From the UHGV virus genome UHGV-0034768: a stretch of 39,178 nucleotides of DNA; one strand, 5' to 3'. Source of the stretch: a virus. This document shows positions 2,261 through 34,529 of the stretch, in pieces; position 1 is the first letter of the stretch; each line of letters begins with the position of its first letter. Made by a program: the position numbers and the translations under genes. Under the pieces are notes generated by a model that saw nothing but the letters and a program-made list of their open reading frames with translations, was not told the origin of the DNA and did not search any database.

Positions 2261-4432
2261 ATGTTTGACCTTAAGAGTATCTGGGGTTCTGACATCGAGA
2301 CCAACGGTCTCCTTGATACAGTATCCCAGTTTCACTGTGGGGTCCTGATTAACGCCGAGTCGAATGAGACCCTTAAGTATGGGGTAGCTCCGATGGTCGG
2401 TATCGTCGGTGGCTTCAAAGAGTATGTTCATAAAGTGGAAGAGATTGCCGCATCTCCTGATGGCATGCTGGTATTCCACAACGGTATCAACTATGACGTA
2501 CCGGCTATCGACAAGCTGAAGCGTCTGTACTTTGGGAAACGTTTTAACTTCCCGAAACACAAGATGATTGATACCTTGGTGCTGGGCCGCTTGATGTATC
2601 CAAACATTAAGTTCTCAGACATGGGTGCTGTGAAAGCTGGTCGTCTGCCACCTCAGATGATGGGACGCCAGTCTCTTGAGGCTTGGGGCTATCGTCTTGG
2701 TGAGATGAAAGGTGAGTACAAGCACGATTACGTTGCCAAGTGCAAGGCTGAAGGTATCGAATATAAGGCTGGGGACGAATGGTTGTTCCCGTCTCAGGAG
2801 ATGCTGGACTATAACGTACAAGACGTTGTGGTCACACTGGCGTTGTTCAAGAAGTTCCTGACTGACAAGTATTACTTCCAGTCTGAACAGTTCGCTTTCG
2901 ACCAGATTTATGCTTTGCGTCTGGAACATGATGCTGCGTGGACCTGTGCAAAGATGGAACGTAACGGCTATCCGATGAACACCGAGATGGTCGAAGGCTT
3001 ATATCGTGAACTCACCGTCAAACGTGCAGAGTTGCTGGACAAGTTGCGTTCAACTTTCGGTAGCTGGTATGCACCGAAGGGAGGCAAGGAGTTCTTCAAG
3101 CACCCACGTACAGGCAAGGACCTTCCGAAGTATCCGCGAGTCGTGTATCCTAAGGTCGGTGGCATCTTTAAGAAGCCGAAGAACAAAGCTCAACGCTTAG
3201 GTCTTGAACCTTGTGAACGCGATACGCGAGACACGATGGAAGGAGCACCATTCACGCCAATAACTTACGTTGAGTTTAATCCGGGAAGCGGAGACCACTT
3301 AGCGAAAGTCCTGATGGAGCGTGGCTGGGAACCAGTGGACTTCACTGACACCGGGAAGCCTGTAGTCGATGACGAGACGTTAGAACACGTTAAGTTGCCA
3401 GACGCAGAGGCTCAGGCGTGCGTAGAGCTGGTCCGTGAGTATCTGGTAGTCCAGAAGCGCATAGGTCAAGCGGCTGAAGGTAAGAACGCATGGTTGAAAC
3501 TTGTAGGTCCAGACGGACGTATGCACGGTGCAATCAACCCATGCGGTGCAGTAACAGGACGTGCTACCCATAGTACACCAAACATGGCTCAGGTCCCGGC
3601 TAACGGTGCCCCATACGGTGAGACTTGCCGTGGTGCTTTCGGTGCAGCGTGGAACAAGAAGGACGGTAAGCCAGACCCTTGGATTCAAGTTGGTGTGGAT
3701 GCCTCAGGTCTTGAGCTTCGTTGTCTTGGGAACAGAGCGGCTCCGTTTGATGGTGGTGCCTATGCGAAGACTGTGGTCGAAGGTGATATACACTGGGCCA
3801 ATGCTGTCAACGCGGGTTTAGCACCTAACGTCCCACGCGATAAGTCGAACCACGACCATGAGGCTTTCCGTAACAACGCTAAGACGTTCATCTATGCGTT
3901 CCTGTATGGTGCAGGGGCCGCTAAGATTGGACTGATAGTCGGCGGTGGTAAGAAGGAAGGTTCGGCCTTGATGAAGAAATTCATTGAGGGTACACCAGCT
4001 ATCAAGGACCTGCGAGAGGCTGTGCAGAACACGCTCATCTCAGAGTCGAAGTGGGTAGATGGTGAGAACATCGTGAAATGGAAACGTCGCTGGCTGAAAG
4101 GTCTGGATGGTCGCCGCATTCACATCCGGTCGCCACACTCAGCACTGAACGCCTTACTTCAAGGTGATGGTGCGGTAGTCTGTAAGCACTGGATTGTTGA
4201 GACTGAGCGTATGCTCGAAGAGGCCGGGTATGTCCACGGCTGGGAAGGAGACTTTGCGTACATGGCATGGGTCCACGACGAATTGCAGATTGCAGCTCGG
4301 AACATGGAGATTGCCGAAGATATTCGCAGGATTGCTCAACTTGCTATGCGGAAGGTGGGTGAGTTCTATAACTTTAAATGTGTCCTTGATACCGAAGGTA
4401 AGATTGGACCAACGTGGAAGGAGTGTCACTAA
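2261..4432 (+). CDS. gp5: DNA polymerase (T7 gp5-like, family A, with 3'-5' exonuclease and thioredoxin-binding insert)
   Basis: Start set at MFDLKSIWGSDIETNGLL (aligns with T7 MIVSDIEANALL) with GGAGGA RBS; conserved blocks FHNGxxYDVPA, GAVTGRATH, KTFIYGFLYGAG, MAWVHDE; C-terminus ...GPTWKECH like T7. Confidence 0.95.
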   Translation: MFDLKSIWGSDIETNGLLDTVSQFHCGVLINAESNETLKYGVAPMVGIVGGFKEYVHKVEEIAASPDGMLVFHNGINYDVPAIDKLKRLYFGKRFNFPKHKMIDTLVLGRLMYPNIKFSDMGAVKAGRLPPQMMGRQSLEAWGYRLGEMKGEYKHDYVAKCKAEGIEYKAGDEWLFPSQEMLDYNVQDVVVTLALFKKFLTDKYYFQSEQFAFDQIYALRLEHDAAWTCAKMERNGYPMNTEMVEGLYRELTVKRAELLDKLRSTFGSWYAPKGGKEFFKHPRTGKDLPKYPRVVYPKVGGIFKKPKNKAQRLGLEPCERDTRDTMEGAPFTPITYVEFNPGSGDHLAKVLMERGWEPVDFTDTGKPVVDDETLEHVKLPDAEAQACVELVREYLVVQKRIGQAAEGKNAWLKLVGPDGRMHGAINPCGAVTGRATHSTPNMAQVPANGAPYGETCRGAFGAAWNKKDGKPDPWIQVGVDASGLELRCLGNRAAPFDGGAYAKTVVEGDIHWANAVNAGLAPNVPRDKSNHDHEAFRNNAKTFIYAFLYGAGAAKIGLIVGGGKKEGSALMKKFIEGTPAIKDLREAVQNTLISESKWVDGENIVKWKRRWLKGLDGRRIHIRSPHSALNALLQGDGAVVCKHWIVETERMLEEAGYVHGWEGDFAYMAWVHDELQIAARNMEIAEDIRRIAQLAMRKVGEFYNFKCVLDTEGKIGPTWKECH

Positions 4433-24830: not shown

Positions 24831-24940
24831 ATCTCTTAAGTGTTAGACTCAAGGTCCTTACTATATGTAGGGGCCTTTATGGTTAACACTAACTAGTGGA
24901 GGCGACTCTACGTGAAATCTGATAAACCGGGAGGGCAACT

Positions 24941-27944: not shown

Positions 27945-28038
27945 CTGAATGAATAACTATAGGTGAAAGCTGCATGAATACGCAGTTAGTACCCTATAGT
28001 TACTACCAGTATAACCTACTGTTTTACAAGGAGTTTGG

Positions 28039-28061
28039 ACTTAACTATCACTATAGGGAAG
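28039..28061 (+). promoter_or_regulatory. phage RNAP promoter (phiOR position), ACTTAACTATCACTATAGGGAAG
   Basis: Consensus match; +1 G at 28056; downstream of terminase near the genome right end, as T7 phiOR. Confidence 0.8.
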
Positions 28062-28241
28062 ACCCCAGGTTACTTATAGTATTACTGTAGTGAATATACA
28101 TATGCAGACTTTATGCAAGACCTTAGGAGGCAGACTCCGAGTTCTTACCTAAGGCTTGCACCGATGGAAGGAGGGTGATATTAATCATAATCCCTCCAAT
28201 ACAGATAGTCACCGACCATAGATACAGGAGGTATGTAGCAT

Positions 28242-28400
28242 ATGGCAAAGACCAAAGCTGTACTTAAAGCTCTGGCGACCAATCGAGCTACATACAGGTT
28301 TCTTGCTGCTGTTCTACTTGCTGCTGGCGTTACTGCTGGAAGTCAGTGGGTCGGGTGGGTCGAGACTCTCGTATGTTCTCTGGTGTCTCAGTGTAATTAA
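28242..28400 (+). CDS. small hydrophobic protein (positional analogue of T7 gene 19.5)
   Basis: 52-aa ORF not in the supplied track (under 60 aa); strong RBS ACAGGAGG 8 nt upstream; predicted TM-like segment. Confidence 0.5.
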   Translation: MAKTKAVLKALATNRATYRFLAAVLLAAGVTAGSQWVGWVETLVCSLVSQCN

Positions 28401-28559
28401 CGCAATCATGGTAACGATTCACGAGCGGAAGACCTAAGGTCAGTACGTGGATAAAGACTCACTCTACTGACCTTAGCTACTGTAGTCAAGGACTTTAGGT
28501 AACACCTTAAGAGAAGCTCACTTAGGGTCATCCTACTTATTGGTCTATCCTAGTGTCGC

Positions 28560-28605
28560 CTGACCTACGGTCCTTGACCTACAGTGGCTGTGGCCTACAG
28601 TAGTG
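28560..28605. repeat. short direct repeats (GACCTACGG / CCTACAGT x3) to the right of the putative terminal repeat
   Basis: Read directly; analogous to the T7 CCTAAAG-type repeat arrays flanking the terminal repeat. Confidence 0.6.
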
Positions 28606-28639
28606 ACGATGAGTTTTGGACCAAAAGTTTGAGACCACA

Positions 28640-28835
28640 TCTCACAGTTCAAGAACTTCAAGTCTCCCCATAGGCCCTCTTTCAGTCCAGACCAAAGGCC
28701 CTCCCCAGTCTATCATAAGGTTGGACCTATGGTCAAGACGTTAGGTCGACGATAGGTCTAGGCTATGGCTGGAGGTCAGACGATAGGTAGGGACTATTGG
28801 TTGTCTCCGAGTCTCTATCTGTATACCATAGGTCT
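28640..28835. repeat. candidate direct terminal repeat region (single collapsed copy); probable physical left end near 28640
   Basis: TCTCACAGT...CTCCCCATAGG at 28640 and ...TGTCTCCGAGTCTCTATCTGTATACCATAGGTCTC resemble the T7 left-end terminal repeat (TCTCACAGTGTACGG...CCCCCATAGGGGG ... TGTCTCTCTGTGTCCCTATCTGTTACAGTCTCC). Confidence 0.4.
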
Positions 28836-28839
28836 CAAC

Positions 28840-28926
28840 AACCTACAGTCCTACAGCCTACAGTCTAACAACCTACAGTCACCGACCATCGGTAAAGCCA
28901 TTACCTACAGTCAAAAGACCTACAGT
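28840..28926. repeat. array of about six CCTACAGT short direct repeats
   Basis: Copies at 28842, 28850, 28857, 28872, 28904, 28919; counterpart of the T7 CCTAAAG array between the terminal repeat and promoter A1. Confidence 0.7.
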
Positions 28927-29039
28927 TAATAGACACAAAGCTATAGACTTAAGGTCTAAGACATGTTAGTCAAAGACTATATCCTCTTAGTCACTATGGG
29001 GCCGACGATAGCTTAATCGATATTATTTAAGATTACCTA

Positions 29040-29068
29040 TTGACTATAGGTCTAGACTATGGCCTAAT
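29040..29068 (+). promoter_or_regulatory. candidate host sigma70 early promoter (A1-like)
   Basis: TTGACT at 29040-29045, then a 17-nt spacer and a weak -10 (CCTAAT); collinear with T7 A1 (TTGACTTAAAGTCTAACCTATAGGATACT). Confidence 0.4.
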
Positions 29069-29180
29069 AGCTTCCGTCAACACGACACGGCAACAACCGG
29101 ATAGTGAAGACGCCGGGTCATCCCGGTTAAGTAGACAGCCTGATAAGTCATACGAACAACAGGCAGATGACAGAAAGCAG

Positions 29181-29210
29181 TTGACAAGATGTACCGACTT
29201 AAAGTAGTAT
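29181..29210 (+). promoter_or_regulatory. candidate host sigma70 early promoter (A3-like)
   Basis: TTGACA at 29181-29186, 18-nt spacer, TAGTAT at 29205-29210; flanking sequence CCGGATA.GTAGACAGCCTGATAAGTC closely matches the T7 A2/A3 region. Confidence 0.5.
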
Positions 29211-29398
29211 GTACCACATCGAAACAACAGTGATGACCAACACTGAAATGGTCTACCTGAAGTCCTCTGACTGAAGGGAATGCTCTTTAACAATCTGGAT
29301 AAAACTCTTAATGTGCGCCGATAGCGACTAACTACAGGGCCTTTGAGTATACATCTGAAGGCCCTGACTGATAGTCACTAACTTAAAGGATGGACACT

Positions 29399-29644
29399 AT
29401 GAAACACTTAAGCACAATCACTAATCGCAATGAAATATTCGTGAACACTAAAGGTTATGCGTGGATTCAGCTTAAAGAGCTGACAGGAGCGCGTCACCGT
29501 GTGGTAGTGCGCAAGGTCTCAAGCAAGCCGTTCAGCAACTACAGCGTAGATACTGTGCGTATAGACAACGAGACCTACCTGATAGACTCGCAGATAACCG
29601 TGCGTCCTACAGCGGGCGTCCCAGCTCCTTATTTCGCTAACTGA
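29399..29644 (+). CDS. hypothetical early protein (first gene after the early promoters, upstream of ocr)
   Basis: 82-aa ORF (second ATG chosen, AAAGGA 7 nt upstream); preceded by a structured leader; no recognisable domain. Confidence 0.6.
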   Translation: MKHLSTITNRNEIFVNTKGYAWIQLKELTGARHRVVVRKVSSKPFSNYSVDTVRIDNETYLIDSQITVRPTAGVPAPYFAN

Positions 29645-29732
29645 GAGTGATTAACTACAGGTCGTTAGACTCATAGCGGCCTGACTGATAGCCACTAACA
29701 TACGCACTAACAACTTTTGAGAGGATATAACT

Positions 29733-30077
29733 ATGGAACGTAACGCTAACGCATACTATGAGCTGCTGGCTGCAACCGTTGAAGCATTTAACGAGCGTAT
29801 TCAGTATGACGAAATAGCTGAAGGCGATGAGTACCACGATGCACTGCATGAGGTCGTAGACGGTCAGGTCCCGCATTATTACCACGAGATTTTCACGGTG
29901 ATGGCTGCTGATGGTATAGACCACGAGTTTGAGGACTCTGGGCTGATGCCTGAGACCAAGGACGTAACGCGTATACTGCAAGCTCGCATCTATGAGGCAT
30001 TGTATAACGACGTGTCTGATAGCTCGGATGTGGTCTGGTTTGAGGCTGAAGAGGAAGACGAAGAGGACTGCGAGTGA
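29733..30077 (+). CDS. ocr: Ocr, DNA-mimic anti-restriction protein (T7 gp0.3-like)
   Basis: 114 aa, very acidic; blocks [49 protein letters not shown] match T7 Ocr ([41 protein letters not shown]). Confidence 0.95.
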
Positions 30078-30226
30078 TAGTAACTTATGGTCTCTGCAAG
30101 CACCACGTCACCAACGCCAGGATTTTGGTCAAGACCGGGCGGTTAAACCACGATGCGGCTATGCGTCACCTGAAAGCGGTCTACGAGGACCGCAAGCGCA
30201 CCCACGACAGCTTACACGCTGAGTGA
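30074..30226 (+). CDS. possible gp0.4-like small protein (T7 gp0.4 inhibits FtsZ)
   Basis: 50-codon ORF not in the supplied track, GTG start overlapping the ocr stop; product ..TYGL....[13 protein letters not shown]....LHAE resembles recalled T7 gp0.4 (..QYGL....AMAQLKELYENNK....ESAE). Confidence 0.45.
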
Positions 30227-30292
30227 TAGACGAGAGGTCATCGACTGATAGGTGGCCTCAAAGATTATCACTTACATTGATAGGAGTTAACT

Positions 30293-30382
30293 ATGAACAT
30301 CGGTTACTGGGTATGCCTGTCTCCGGTCATCTTTCTGATAGCTTGGGGCCTTCTGGACGCAATCAAGCGAGGGTCATTCTAA
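30293..30382 (+). CDS. 29-aa hydrophobic peptide (early, gene 0.5-like position)
   Basis: MNIGYWVCLSPVIFLIAWGLLDAIKRGSF with TAGGAG RBS 7 nt upstream; short, so uncertain. Confidence 0.35.
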   Translation: MNIGYWVCLSPVIFLIAWGLLDAIKRGSF

Positions 30383-30576
30383 TGAGCTGGATACTTCTGG
30401 TCATTGGCTACGGGTTAATACTCGCAGTCATCATGAAAGACATCAACAAAGCGCGTACAGTCTACAACTTCAACTATGTGCGTCTGGGTCGCTGGACTGT
30501 ACGTCAACCTAACGGGCGATTCATGCGCAACTTAGCGAACGTCTGGGATATAGCAACTATCGGGAGTAAACTGTAA
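30382..30576 (+). CDS. 64-aa early membrane protein
   Basis: MSWILLVIGYGLILAVIM... single TM segment; TAATG overlap with the upstream peptide; the track ORF 30223-30576 is likely a 5' over-extension. Confidence 0.5.
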   Translation: MSWILLVIGYGLILAVIMKDINKARTVYNFNYVRLGRWTVRQPNGRFMRNLANVWDIATIGSKL

Positions 30577-30902
30577 TGAACAAGTCATACGGGATTAATC
30601 TGGTACACTCTATGGACGCAGAAATGAACATGTTAAGCCTACTGGCTACCGGGTATCGTCACGGAACGTCAAGTCACACCGCACGTCAACAGCAGGAGCG
30701 GGACCGTGTACTACAGGCACGACTCCAGGCAGAGGGCCATAAGGCTGAGCTGATGTGGCTGGCGTATGGTGGACGACCTATCACCGACGATGGTAAACTT
30801 CTGGTCTCAGGCTGGAAGGCGATAGACCAACGGTCAACCATCAAGCACACGACTCACGGTGACTTCAGTCATCTACACGCTAACCCATTGATATGCAAGT
30901 GA
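30576..30902 (+). CDS. hypothetical early protein (108 aa) at the position of the absent gp0.7 kinase
   Basis: ORF with ATG overlapping the upstream stop; no kinase motifs; immediately upstream of the RNAP gene. Confidence 0.6.
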   Translation: MNKSYGINLVHSMDAEMNMLSLLATGYRHGTSSHTARQQQERDRVLQARLQAEGHKAELMWLAYGGRPITDDGKLLVSGWKAIDQRSTIKHTTHGDFSHLHANPLICK

Positions 30903-30907
30903 TTCTG

Positions 30908-30930
30908 ACTTAACTATCACTATAGGACTC
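30908..30930 (+). promoter_or_regulatory. phage RNAP promoter directly upstream of the RNAP gene, ACTTAACTATCACTATAGGACTC
   Basis: Consensus match; +1 G at 30925, 74 nt upstream of the RNAP start codon. Confidence 0.75.
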
Positions 30931-30998
30931 AAGGTCTAAGACTCCAAGTGAAAGACCAAAGAGACTTAAGTGAAAGACTAATAACAAGGACTTTAAGT

Positions 30999-33680
30999 AT
31001 GAGCGTCATCTCCATTGACAAACACGACTTCTCTGATGTGTCTAACGCTATTGAGCCGTTTAACCTGCTGGCTGACCACTACGGGCAAGACCTTGCAGTC
31101 AAGCAACTTCAGCTTGAGCATGAGGCATACACTGAAGGCGAGCGACGTTTCATCAAGAACCTTGAGCGTCAGACAGAGCGCGGTGAACTGGCAGACAATC
31201 AGGTCGCCAAGCCTTTGATGCAGACTCTGGTCCCTAAGATTGCGCAAGCCGTCAAGGAGTGGCATGACGGTCCAGACGGGAAGATGTCAACATCTCGTCC
31301 TAGCGTAGCGTTCACCATGTTGAGCACTGAAGAGAAGGCCGTCAAGGACCGCTCTCTGCGCATCTCCTGTGAGTCTGCTGCGGTTATCATACTGAAGGTC
31401 ATCCTCTCCAAGCTGGTAAAGCCTGAAGGGATACCGATTACACCGATGGCCTCAGCGATAGGTCGCACACTTGAGGACGAAATCCGCTTCGGTCGCATCC
31501 GTGACAAGGAGAAGGAGCACTTCAAGAAGGCGATAGCTGAGAACCTGAACAAGCGAGCCGGGGCATCCTACAAGAAAGCCTACATGCAAGCTGTTGAGAC
31601 CTCCATGCTTGAGCAAGGTCAACTGGAAGATGCGTGGGGAACTTGGAGTCCGACCGAGGCGGTCCATGTTGGCATCAAGATGCTTGAGATTGTCATCCAG
31701 TCCACTCAACTGGTAGAGCTTAAGCGTTATGGTGCTGGCAATGCAGCGGCTGATGTTGAGATGGTCCACCTATCAGACTTCTGGGTCAAGAAGATGGCCC
31801 AACGTGGCTTCAGCCTTGCGGGTATCGCTCCAGTCTATCAACCTTGCGTAGTTCCACCTAAGCCGTGGACGGGTGTCGTAGGCGGTGGGTATTGGGCCAA
31901 AGGACGCAGACCGTTGCCACTGATTCGCTTAGGGTCTAAGTCTGCGGTAGCACGTTATGAGGACGTGTACATGCCTGAAGTCTATGACGCTGTGAACATC
32001 ATCCAGAATACACCTTGGAAAGTTAACAAGAAGGTGTTGGACGTGGTGAACATGGTCGAGAAGCTGAACAACACGCCTATTGATGATATCCCTCAGATGG
32101 AGCCACTGAAGCCTGAAGACTATGCGGGTGAGACTGAAGAGGAACTCAAGGCATGGAAGAAGGCTGCTGCTGGTATCTACCGCCGAGAGAAGGCCCGGCA
32201 GTCACGTAGATTGTCACTGAGCTTTATCGTTAACCAGGCTAACAAGTTCTCTCAGTTCAAGGCCATCTGGTTCCCGTATAACATGGACTGGCGCGGTCGC
32301 GTATACGCTGTGCCGATGTTCAACCCTCAGGGTAACGACATGCAAAAGGGTCTCCTTACTCTGGCAGTCGGTAAGCCTATTGGTGCTGATGGTTTCAAAT
32401 GGCTGAAGGTCCACGGTGCAAACTGTGCGGGTATTGATAAAGTCACCTTCGAGGAGCGCATCAAGTGGGTGGAAGACAACCACGACAACATCATGACTAC
32501 TGCTAAGGCACCGATGGACAGCATTGAGTGGTGGGGTAAGTTAGACTCTCCGTTCTGCTTCCTCGCGTTCTGCTTCGAGTATGCTGGCGTAATGCACCAC
32601 GGCCTATCTTACTCTTGCTCGCTACCGATAGCTTTCGATGGGTCCTGCTCTGGGATTCAGCACTTCAGCGCGATGCTTCGAGATCACATCGGTGGACATG
32701 CAGTAAACTTGACGCCATCCGGTAAGGTCCAAGACATCTACCGCATCGTATCCGACCGCATTGAGGAGGAACTTAAAGTCCTGCTGGTTAACGGTACGGA
32801 CAACGAGATGGTAACTCACGAGGATAAGAAAACTGGTGAGATTACCGAGCGTCTCAAGCTGGGGACACGAGAGCTGTCCCGTCAGTGGCTGACCTACGGT
32901 ATGTCACGCAAGGTTACTAAGCGTTCGGTTATGACTCTGGCCTACGGGTCGAAAGAGTACGGCTTCGCAGACCAAGTTTACGAGGACATCGTGATGCCAG
33001 CGATTGACTCAGGGTCTGGTGCCATGTTCACCGAGCCAAGCCAAGCGTCTCGTTTCATGGCTAAGATGATTTGGGAAGCTGTGAGTGTGACCGTAGTCGC
33101 TGCGGTTGACGCAATGAAGTGGCTTCAAGGTGCTGCTAAGCTGCTGGCTGCTGAAGTAAAGGACAAGAAGACAGGCGAAATACTGAAGCCTTGCCTTCCG
33201 GTACACTGGGTAACACCTGATGGTTTCCCGGTCTGGCAGGAATACCGCAAGAAGGATACAACCCGTCTGAACCTGATGTTCTTAGGGTCGTTCAACCTTC
33301 AGCCTACCGTCAACAGGGGTACGAAGAAAGAGCTGGACAAGCACAAGCAGGAGTCAGGCATTAGCCCGAACTTCGTCCACTCACAAGATGGTAGCCACCT
33401 CCGCAAGACTGTAGTCCACACGCACCGCAAGTATGGCGTAATGTCCTTCGCAGTGATTCACGATAGCTTCGGGACCATCCCGGCTGACGCTGAGTATCTG
33501 TTCCGTGGGGTCCGTGAGACTATGGTAGAGACCTACCGCGACAATGATGTGCTGCTTGACTTCTACGAGCAGTTCGAATACCAGCTTCACGAGAGCCAGC
33601 GCGACAAGTTGCCTGAGCTTCCGAAGAAAGGTAAACTGAACATAGAAGACATCTTGTCTTCAGACTTTGCATTCGCTTAA
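30999..33680 (+). CDS. gp1: DNA-directed RNA polymerase, single-subunit (T7 gp1-like)
   Basis: Start at MSVISIDKHDFSD (T7 MNTINIAKNDFSD) with AAGGA RBS; extensive identity to T7 RNAP including PWTGVVGGGYWA, FPYNMDWRGRVYAV, NCSLP.AFDGSCSGIQHFSAMLRD, HDSFGT, and C-terminal FAFA. Confidence 0.97.
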   Translation: MSVISIDKHDFSDVSNAIEPFNLLADHYGQDLAVKQLQLEHEAYTEGERRFIKNLERQTERGELADNQVAKPLMQTLVPKIAQAVKEWHDGPDGKMSTSRPSVAFTMLSTEEKAVKDRSLRISCESAAVIILKVILSKLVKPEGIPITPMASAIGRTLEDEIRFGRIRDKEKEHFKKAIAENLNKRAGASYKKAYMQAVETSMLEQGQLEDAWGTWSPTEAVHVGIKMLEIVIQSTQLVELKRYGAGNAAADVEMVHLSDFWVKKMAQRGFSLAGIAPVYQPCVVPPKPWTGVVGGGYWAKGRRPLPLIRLGSKSAVARYEDVYMPEVYDAVNIIQNTPWKVNKKVLDVVNMVEKLNNTPIDDIPQMEPLKPEDYAGETEEELKAWKKAAAGIYRREKARQSRRLSLSFIVNQANKFSQFKAIWFPYNMDWRGRVYAVPMFNPQGNDMQKGLLTLAVGKPIGADGFKWLKVHGANCAGIDKVTFEERIKWVEDNHDNIMTTAKAPMDSIEWWGKLDSPFCFLAFCFEYAGVMHHGLSYSCSLPIAFDGSCSGIQHFSAMLRDHIGGHAVNLTPSGKVQDIYRIVSDRIEEELKVLLVNGTDNEMVTHEDKKTGEITERLKLGTRELSRQWLTYGMSRKVTKRSVMTLAYGSKEYGFADQVYEDIVMPAIDSGSGAMFTEPSQASRFMAKMIWEAVSVTVVAAVDAMKWLQGAAKLLAAEVKDKKTGEILKPCLPVHWVTPDGFPVWQEYRKKDTTRLNLMFLGSFNLQPTVNRGTKKELDKHKQESGISPNFVHSQDGSHLRKTVVHTHRKYGVMSFAVIHDSFGTIPADAEYLFRGVRETMVETYRDNDVLLDFYEQFEYQLHESQRDKLPELPKKGKLNIEDILSSDFAFA

Positions 33681-33973: not shown

Positions 33974-34453
33974 ATGTTCGGTAAGTCAAAACTTAAAGCA
34001 CAAATCAAAGAGTTGAGCATGAAGGTGGCATACTTGGAGCGAGTCGTAACGGTCCGGGATAAGGACAACGAGAGGCTGAAGGTTAAACTTGCTGAATCAG
34101 AGCGTAAGCGCCTGACACCACCAGCGGCTGTAACTGTCAAGCGTATGGTAGGCATCAAGTTCAAGGCACTGTTCAACGGGCTGTACCAACCGACTGAGTT
34201 CAAGACAGGGCCTGGTAGCTGCGGGAAGAACGTTAAGCATTTCACCATATCGAAGACTGAACGCACCATTACCATCCACCAGCACCACGTAGACGGGTCT
34301 CAGAAAGACTTTGAGTACCGACTGAGCGACATCGATGGTCGCATCCAGTATGACTACGAGCGGGTTAAGGTCTATGGCGAGGAGGCAGAGCAGGAACGTA
34401 TAGTACAAGCCTTACGCAACAGACAACGATTATACCCTAAACTATCACTATAG
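33974..34453 (+). CDS. hypothetical protein (159 aa; N-terminal heptad-like helical region)
   Basis: ORF with GAAGAGG RBS; no T7 counterpart between gene 1 and gene 1.1; function unknown. Confidence 0.6.
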   Translation: MFGKSKLKAQIKELSMKVAYLERVVTVRDKDNERLKVKLAESERKRLTPPAAVTVKRMVGIKFKALFNGLYQPTEFKTGPGSCGKNVKHFTISKTERTITIHQHHVDGSQKDFEYRLSDIDGRIQYDYERVKVYGEEAEQERIVQALRNRQRLYPKLSL

Positions 34454-34458
34454 GATTA
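34436..34458 (+). promoter_or_regulatory. phage RNAP promoter (phi1.1 position), CCTAAACTATCACTATAGGATTA
   Basis: Consensus match; +1 G at 34453; overlaps the stop of the upstream ORF. Confidence 0.8.
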
Positions 34459-34529
34459 GACTCAAGGTCATGACTCAAAGTCGTGGCCTTCATGATTAAC
34501 CCTATAACCTAAACAACTGGAGCTACAAC

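Follow-up and report, generated by a model that had tools for sequence, protein, structure and literature searches.

Three stem-loop elements in the early region of a K1F-like phage, called E1, E2 and E3 here, are most probably RNase III processing sites of the T7 group, situated in the part of the genome transcribed by the host RNA polymerase. We estimate the probability of this assignment at roughly 85%. The processing of early RNA by RNase III is a classical finding in the T7 group, and E1-E3 are previously unannotated members of this long-known class of sites. No RNase III sites are annotated in two public records of K1F or in the Peacock record. A literature search, whose coverage did not extend to the K1F genome paper, found no paper on RNase III sites in K1F or Kayfunavirus and none with RNA-end data for the group.

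Genome context of the early region

The whole stretch of DNA analysed (the window, 39,178 bp) is the complete genome, in circularly permuted form, of a K1F-like (Kayfunavirus) phage of the T7 group. Positions 28900-31000 showed 90-94% identity with Escherichia phages Peacock, K1F, Vec13 and vB_EcoP_F and with many other Kayfunavirus; 429 Studiervirinae records matched. The features of this region are as follows.

27944: 3' end of the large terminase gene
near 29040: start of the early region, with both E1 and E2 at its beginning
29181-29210, + strand: A3-type host sigma-70 early promoter (TTGACA, 18 nt, TAGTAT; 10/12 matches in a promoter scan)
29322-29382, + strand: E1, predicted RNase III-type site (lower stem 29322-29330 / 29372-29380; upper stem 29335-29344 / 29357-29366)
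29399-29644, + strand: gp0.2-like ORF (81 aa, phrog_10124), between E1 and E2
29645-29697, + strand: E2, predicted RNase III-type site (upper stem 29658-29667 / 29674-29683)
29733-30077, + strand: ocr (gene 0.3), DNA-mimic anti-restriction protein (Pfam PF08684, E = 1.7e-31; phrog_2568)
30220-30274, + strand: E3, predicted RNase III-type site (lower stem GAGUGAUAG / GAUUAUCACUU)
about 30999: RNA polymerase gene, downstream of the early region

The promoter at 29181-29210 could be aligned with the A3 promoters of T7 and T3 and with the conserved leader that follows them. It is the A3 homologue and would drive the transcript carrying E1-E3. E1 and E3 are intergenic, the 5' foot of E2 abuts the gp0.2 stop codon (29642-29644), and all three lie on the + strand downstream of this promoter. 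The gp0.2 gene is present in some relatives and absent from others.

Several other properties of the region were recorded. The 0.4-like ORF (30074-30226) encodes a protein starting MVTYGL. In relatives it starts at an ATG that shares bases with the stop codon of ocr (TGATG). In the window this codon is ATA (30077-30079), and the reading frame offers no start other than the GTG at 30074, one codon further upstream; translation of the 0.4-like gene may therefore be reduced or lost. The RNA polymerase ORF, as called mechanically, begins at a GTG at 30948, while the start used in relatives (MSVISIDKHDF) corresponds to the ATG at 30999 and gives a protein of 893 aa. Between E3 and this gene (30293-30902) only small ORFs of 29, 64 and 108 aa were found and no gp0.7-type protein kinase is encoded, so RNase III in this phage would act without kinase stimulation. 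In four related contigs (L015, L033, L047 and L079) a kinase of phrog_15752, which is described as a positive RNase III regulator, comes right after an E-type site. Upstream, about 10 copies of the short repeats CCTACAGT / CCTACGGT are densely scattered over 28560-28930, in the non-coding DNA that separates the right-end genes from the early promoters. They may form part of a terminal-repeat or concatemer-junction region.

Sequence and predicted fold of E1, E2 and E3

A first-pass annotation of this DNA had described two related elements upstream of the ORF at 29399 and of ocr at 29733, and both are present where it placed them. They share AACTACAGG (29330-29338 in E1, 29653-29661 in E2) and a 3' block, CCTGACTGATAG(T/C)CACTAAC, which is 19/20 identical between 29363-29382 and 29680-29699. 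The block had been written with a leading G; this holds for E2 only, E1 reading GCCCTG. Exact copies of the 11-mer CTGACTGATAG occur only at E1 and E2 in the 39-kb window, and the length of the repeat is far beyond chance for a sequence of this size. The hairpin arms of E1, CAGGGCC (29335-29341) and GGCCCTG (29360-29366), are those originally reported. The E2 hairpin is also real as a pairing, with arms CAGGTCG at 29658-29664 and CGGCCTG at 29677-29683, one base away from the positions first assigned.

RNA folding, which had been proposed as a check of both elements, gave structures better than those of shuffled sequences. The fold of E1 had a free energy of -25.6 kcal/mol (z = -4.9; 0/200 shuffles as good) and that of E2 -18.9 kcal/mol (z = -2.6; 3/200 shuffles as good). 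The hairpin described before turned out to be the upper half only, because pairing between the conserved flanks creates a 9-bp lower stem beneath it. The same architecture was found in a third element, E3, which the first-pass annotation lacked (-24.5 kcal/mol; z = -3.7). In the predicted fold of all three, a lower stem (9 bp in E1 and E2) is separated from the upper hairpin by an asymmetric internal loop.

By analogy with the T7 cuts at 890 (UUUAU^GAU) and 3138 (UGAAU^AGG), a single cut in E1 is predicted at U29369^G29370, 29 nt upstream of the gp0.2 start codon. The corresponding cuts are predicted at U29686^G29687 in E2, 46 nt upstream of the ocr start codon, and at A30262^G30263 in E3. For E1 the two strands fold about equally well, which makes folding energy uninformative on strand; the choice of strand rests on the model hits, on the wobble pairs and on the direction in which the region is transcribed. 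At position 29692 of E2 the window has C and the relatives examined have T (GATAGCCACT vs GATAGTCACT). With C, the lower stem has an A.C mismatch in place of an A-U pair, and the E2 fold is weaker.

Covariance-model search of the genome

A covariance model (model R1) was trained solely on 12 canonical T7/T3 sites, in whose alignment (A1) the two helices are 96% paired and show strong covariation. When this model was run on the whole window, on both strands and with filters off, six hits of 33-48 bits with E < 1e-4 were obtained, all on the + strand.

24835-24895, + strand: canonical RNase III-type site at the position of R18.5, with the small terminase gene on one side and an Rz-like gene on the other (47.7 bits)
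2192-2249, + strand: canonical RNase III-type site at the R4.7 position, directly upstream of the DNA polymerase gene (46.6 bits)
34448-34508, + strand: canonical RNase III-type site at the position of R1.1, following the RNA polymerase gene region and preceding the 1.1/1.2/ligase genes (45.3 bits)
29642-29701, + strand: E2 (36.9 bits, E = 5.8e-6)
30218-30277, + strand: E3 (35.2 bits, E = 1.4e-5)
29319-29384, + strand: E1 (32.9 bits, E = 4.5e-5)

No further site was found by the model in the window, where the next hit had 10.6 bits and an E value of about 5. The T3 record annotates R4.7 and R18.5 at positions matching the window sites. Since the three hits outside the early region fall at the R1.1, R4.7 and R18.5 positions, the model is specific in this genome, and E1-E3 therefore belong to the same family as the T7/T3 sites. 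As a decoy control, IMG/VR was scanned for the pattern CTACAGG...CCTGACTGAT, which gave 73 loci. Model hits were confined to contigs of about 39-40.5 kb and to the K1F and Peacock records, and about 50 unrelated IMG/VR contigs carrying the pattern by chance gave 0 hits. A scan of 28000-31500 against Rfam returned just two chance-level matches (E > 9), and no family there fits these T7-type sites.

The phage promoter at 34436-34455 extends into the 5' arm of the R1.1-type site, so that transcripts from it would begin within the lower stem. The overlap of promoter and site is arranged in the same way in phi1.1/R1.1 of T3.

Covariation and pairing determinants

Pairing in both helices was counted in an alignment (A2) of 39 distinct sites from the window and its relatives. 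The pairs were intact in 94.9% of cells, with 100% in the upper helix, and eight pairs showed changes on both sides. The covariation score was 0.469, compared with 0.196 +/- 0.012 for shuffled alignments, none of which reached that value (0/500). When the 3' partner was slid by 1-3 columns as a control, pairing fell to 25-50%. Both helices are maintained by compensatory changes across the 39 sites.

Two pairs of the upper stem, an A-U and the adjacent G-C, are invariant (39/39 sites). By our own mapping these would be proximal-box positions 2 and 1, which according to Pertzev and Nicholson require AU/UA and GC, respectively; G-C or C-G at position 2 is strongly inhibitory (PMC1540722). Position 3, the pair beside the loop, is C-G in E1 and E2 and G-C in E3, and its optimum is A-U. 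In a minimal substrate, C-G in place of A-U beside the loop lowers RNase III binding, and G-C or C-G near the scissile bond can lower reactivity or uncouple binding from cleavage (PMC1540722). The scores of E1-E3 are lower by about 10 bits than those of the canonical late sites. Given these lower scores and the non-A-U pair beside the loop, the early sites could be cut less efficiently than the canonical late ones.

In the distal box, a U.G pair is kept in E2 and not in E1. The wobble occurs in E2 and in the E1 of relatives, where the window E1 has G-C. As U.G would be a C.A mismatch on the opposite strand, selection acts on the + strand RNA.

Internal loops are known to limit RNase III to a single cut, leaving a 3' hairpin that shields the product from 3'-5' exonucleases (PMC1540722). 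Such a cut, with the protective hairpin left behind, is the likely role of E1-E3.

Proposed processing of the early transcript and alternative explanations

We infer by homology that RNase III cleaves at E1-E3, and from the same homology we take the predicted cut positions and any effect on stability or translation. In the proposed scheme the host RNA polymerase would start at the A-type promoters, the last of which is at 29181-29210, and produce one long early transcript. Each element in this transcript would fold into about two helical turns, with a 9-bp lower stem, the asymmetric loop and a 9-10-bp upper stem. Host RNase III would bind the duplex and, because of the internal loop, cut on the 3' side only, three nt below the upper stem (CCUGACU^GAU). 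Cuts after 29369, 29686 and 30262 would release a promoter-proximal leader RNA, a gp0.2 message, a message for ocr and 0.4, and a downstream message. The upper hairpin would end each message and protect it from 3' exonucleases, and each message would have GAUAG(U/C)CACUAAC at its 5' end and, after it, a ribosome-binding site of its own. E2 would exist because the optional gp0.2 gene sits between two sites. In this clade, gene cassettes are bounded by RNase III-type sites, with the joint within a shared 20-nt 3' half.

As an alternative, RNA structure in the elements might adjust how strongly gp0.2 and ocr are translated, for instance by long-range pairing that hides or exposes the ribosome-binding site, with or without cleavage. 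They lie 29-46 nt upstream of start codons, and Dunn and Studier reportedly found in 1975 that cleavage at R0.3 improves translation of the T7 0.3 mRNA, although this effect could be an added consequence of cleavage and not an alternative to it. We consider translational control improbable, as the lower stems end 6 nt (E1) and >20 nt (E2) before the Shine-Dalgarno sequence and do not sequester it. The predicted probability that the region from Shine-Dalgarno to AUG is unpaired changes on cleavage from 0.56 to 0.46 for gp0.2 and from 0.52 to 0.69 for ocr, which are small effects in opposite directions. The structure also occurs where it has no relation to a particular start codon, and known T7 cleavage sites share it. 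Occlusion of the ribosome-binding site was rejected as the main function, no consistent effect being predicted. Somewhat less probable still is that RNase III binds without cutting, or that the elements are RNA-stabilising hairpins only and are not processed. The loop-side pair is indeed C-G (G-C in E3) and not A-U, a kind of pair that can uncouple binding from cleavage (PMC1540722), and E1-E3 score below the canonical sites. Yet exactly the same stem base, ACAGGUC/GGCCUGA, is present in R1 of T7 and T3, whose internal loop is similar in size. R1 is said, after Dunn and Studier in 1983, to be an established cleavage site in vivo. Furthermore, the position at which uncoupling occurs (proximal-box position 4) is by our mapping in the unpaired loop here, as it is in R1.1.

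A role at the DNA level only, as recombination boundary or DNA hairpin with an incidental RNA fold, appears very unlikely, even though the cassette joints described below lie inside the shared 20-nt block and E1 folds about equally well on either strand. The Lamassu defence system can moreover sense, as DNA, palindromes derived from T7 RNase III sites (PMC11707656). Against such a role, all six of the six model hits are on the transcribed strand, and the U.G wobble and the strand-specific loop sequences are conserved. Compensatory changes keep the pairing and not the sequence, while a pure recombination joint needs sequence identity and no bipartite helix. We give hardly any credence to intrinsic terminators or attenuators, which the G+C-rich intergenic hairpin of each element might recall, or to promoters of the phage polymerase. 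The hairpins are followed by ACUGAUAG and not by a U-run, and a terminator scan was empty at E1 and E2. The phage promoter consensus CTAAACTATCACTATAGG has 11 copies in the window, none of them within 29300-29720 or 30215-30280. The fold, the covariance model, synteny and covariation all favour the first-pass suggestion of RNase III sites like those of T7; its likening of E2 to R0.5 did not survive, E3 being the counterpart.

Gene cassettes and the duplication of E1 and E2

Sites and ORFs were mapped in relatives and the junction sequences were read. The following layouts were found.

Window and K1F: E1, gp0.2, E2, ocr + 0.4, E3
Peacock: E1, gp0.2, site, 92-aa gene, site, ocr
39,747-bp IMG/VR contig: E1, 92-aa gene, site, gp0.2, site, ocr (order reversed relative to Peacock)
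Contigs L011, L059, L071 and L078: E1 directly upstream of ocr, with one site

The number of sites tracks the number of extra genes, with one site where gp0.2 is missing and three where there are two extra genes. The E1/E2 duplication is, as these layouts suggest, the footprint of an optional gene between two processing sites. The opposite order of gp0.2 (81 aa) and the 92-aa gene (phrog_9817) can be read by comparing Peacock (L003, 696-1430) with the 39,747-bp contig (L051, 848-1580), and each gene has its own variant of the downstream half-site, TGAGAGTGATT with gp0.2 and TACTAGTGATT with the 92-aa gene. In other relatives the gene right after an E-type site encodes a 174-aa protein, a gp0.7-like kinase (phrog_15752), a small helix-turn-helix protein or a 51-aa ORF. 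By BLAST, E1 and its 3' flank are also conserved in other phages, where they precede genes for S-adenosylmethionine hydrolase.

Leaders are kept wherever the gene sits; they are TTAA(A/C)GGATGGACACTATG for gp0.2, AACCTAAGAGGATTCATTATG for the 92-aa gene and ...AACT(T)TGAGAGGATATAACTATG for ocr. Each cassette gene likewise keeps its own 3' tail and its own 5' half-site. The sole sequence common to all joints is the 20-nt 3' half CCTGACTGATAGTCACTAAC, which reaches across the predicted cut and includes the 13 nt with which the next mRNA would begin. Recombination in this shared half would be the simplest route for gain, loss and reordering of genes. We regard the chances as about even that the RNase III site doubles as a cassette recombination joint, with CCTGACTGATAGTCACTAAC supplying the homology for insertion, deletion and reordering of early genes among K1F-like phages. 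If this is true, each gene with its own leader, 3' tail and hairpin would correspond to about one processed mRNA, and acquired early genes, possibly including anti-defence genes, would come ready for processing and stabilisation.

T7-style signals in a K1F-like phage change no concept. They are of use in annotation, as six sites are detectable per genome and are absent from the K1F and Peacock records. In the engineering of K1F-type therapeutic phages, the sites would be natural places at which payload genes could safely be inserted, and a payload gene flanked by a copy of the site should be processed and stabilised as a native gene is. The site-bounded layout, with one gene per interval, accounts for the E1/E2 duplication, and early genes without an assigned function would be gained or lost at such intervals.

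Comparison with the processing sites of T7 and T3 and with other modular phages

The T3 reference record, in which RNase III recognition sites are annotated as stem-loops, was used for comparison together with the T7 cleavage coordinates, which we take to be 890, 1468, 3138, 5887 and 6450; the T7 records consulted carry no annotation of these sites. On folding, each T7 coordinate was found three nt 3' of the upper stem, for example UUUAU^GAU at 890 and UGAAU^AGG at 3138. Whether computed as minimum free energy or as centroid structures, the folds of the three elements agree with those of T7 R0.3, R0.5, R1 and R1.1 and of the annotated T3 sites, and the stem lengths are similar.

In an alignment, window positions 29150-29410 are collinear with T7 700-935 and T3 650-910. 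The shared order is the A3 promoter (TTGACAA ... ATGTACCACAT), a conserved leader including GCTCTTTAACAATCTGG, and an RNase III site, and E1 is therefore assigned, on this order, as the positional orthologue of T7/T3 R0.3. Like R0.3, E1 follows an A3-type promoter and a leader with GCTCTTTAACAATCTGG, has the bipartite fold, and carries AGCG..TAACT at its start, an unusual GGG at the stem base and TGATA.TCACTAA at its end. The two differ in the internal loop (ACUC / UUUAU in R0.3, ACUAC / CUGACU in E1), in the loop-side pair (A-U in R0.3, C-G in E1) and in the terminal loop, which has 4-5 nt in R0.3 and about 12 nt in E1. The gene after the site is 0.3 for R0.3 and gp0.2 for E1.

E3 is, judging by place and stem, the orthologue of T7 R0.5. 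Both lie after a 0.4-like gene and have a near-identical lower stem, GAGUGAUAG ... GAUUAUCACUU, whereas the loop and stem base are CUCAAGG / CCUUUAU in R0.5 and GAGAGG / CCUCAAA in E3. E2 is without a T7/T3 counterpart and is an extra site accompanying gp0.2. Its upper-stem base and flanks, ACAGGUC ... GGCCUGA, are identical to those of T7/T3 R1. The internal loop of E1 and E2, ACUAC ... CUGACUGAU, differs from the canonical CUCAAGG ... CCUUUAUGAU, and the two elements are, by this comparison, an internal-loop sequence variant resembling R1. The T7 R1 cut (UGAAU^AGG) and the predicted cut of E1 and E2 (CUGACU^GAU) are both three nt 3' of the stem, and R1 of T7 and T3, like E1-E3, has by our mapping a non-A-U pair at proximal-box position 3.

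R1 itself lies directly upstream of the RNA polymerase gene, where the window has no scoring site. In this place (30905-30990) a copy of the phage promoter, CTTAACTATCACTATAGG, is found at 30909-30926, just upstream of the polymerase gene, followed by a degenerate remnant ACTCAAGGTCT...AGACCAAAG, also read as ACTCAAGGTCT...AGACCAAAGAG. In the latter form it looks like a decayed R1-type site. An R1-type site before the polymerase gene was rejected, as 30895-31005 folds no better than shuffled sequence (z = -1.2) and the model gave no hit. A phage promoter before gene 1 would give positive feedback; to our knowledge T7 has none at this position.

The arrangement of the early cassettes also recalls the modular evolution of lambdoid phages, for which Susskind and Botstein reportedly proposed conserved boundary sequences between interchangeable modules. 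In both cases short conserved flanks surround genes that are present, absent or reordered, and the joints fall within a conserved block. Unlike the lambdoid modules, the boundary in K1F-like phages is itself a predicted RNA processing signal, and a module would correspond to about one processed mRNA.
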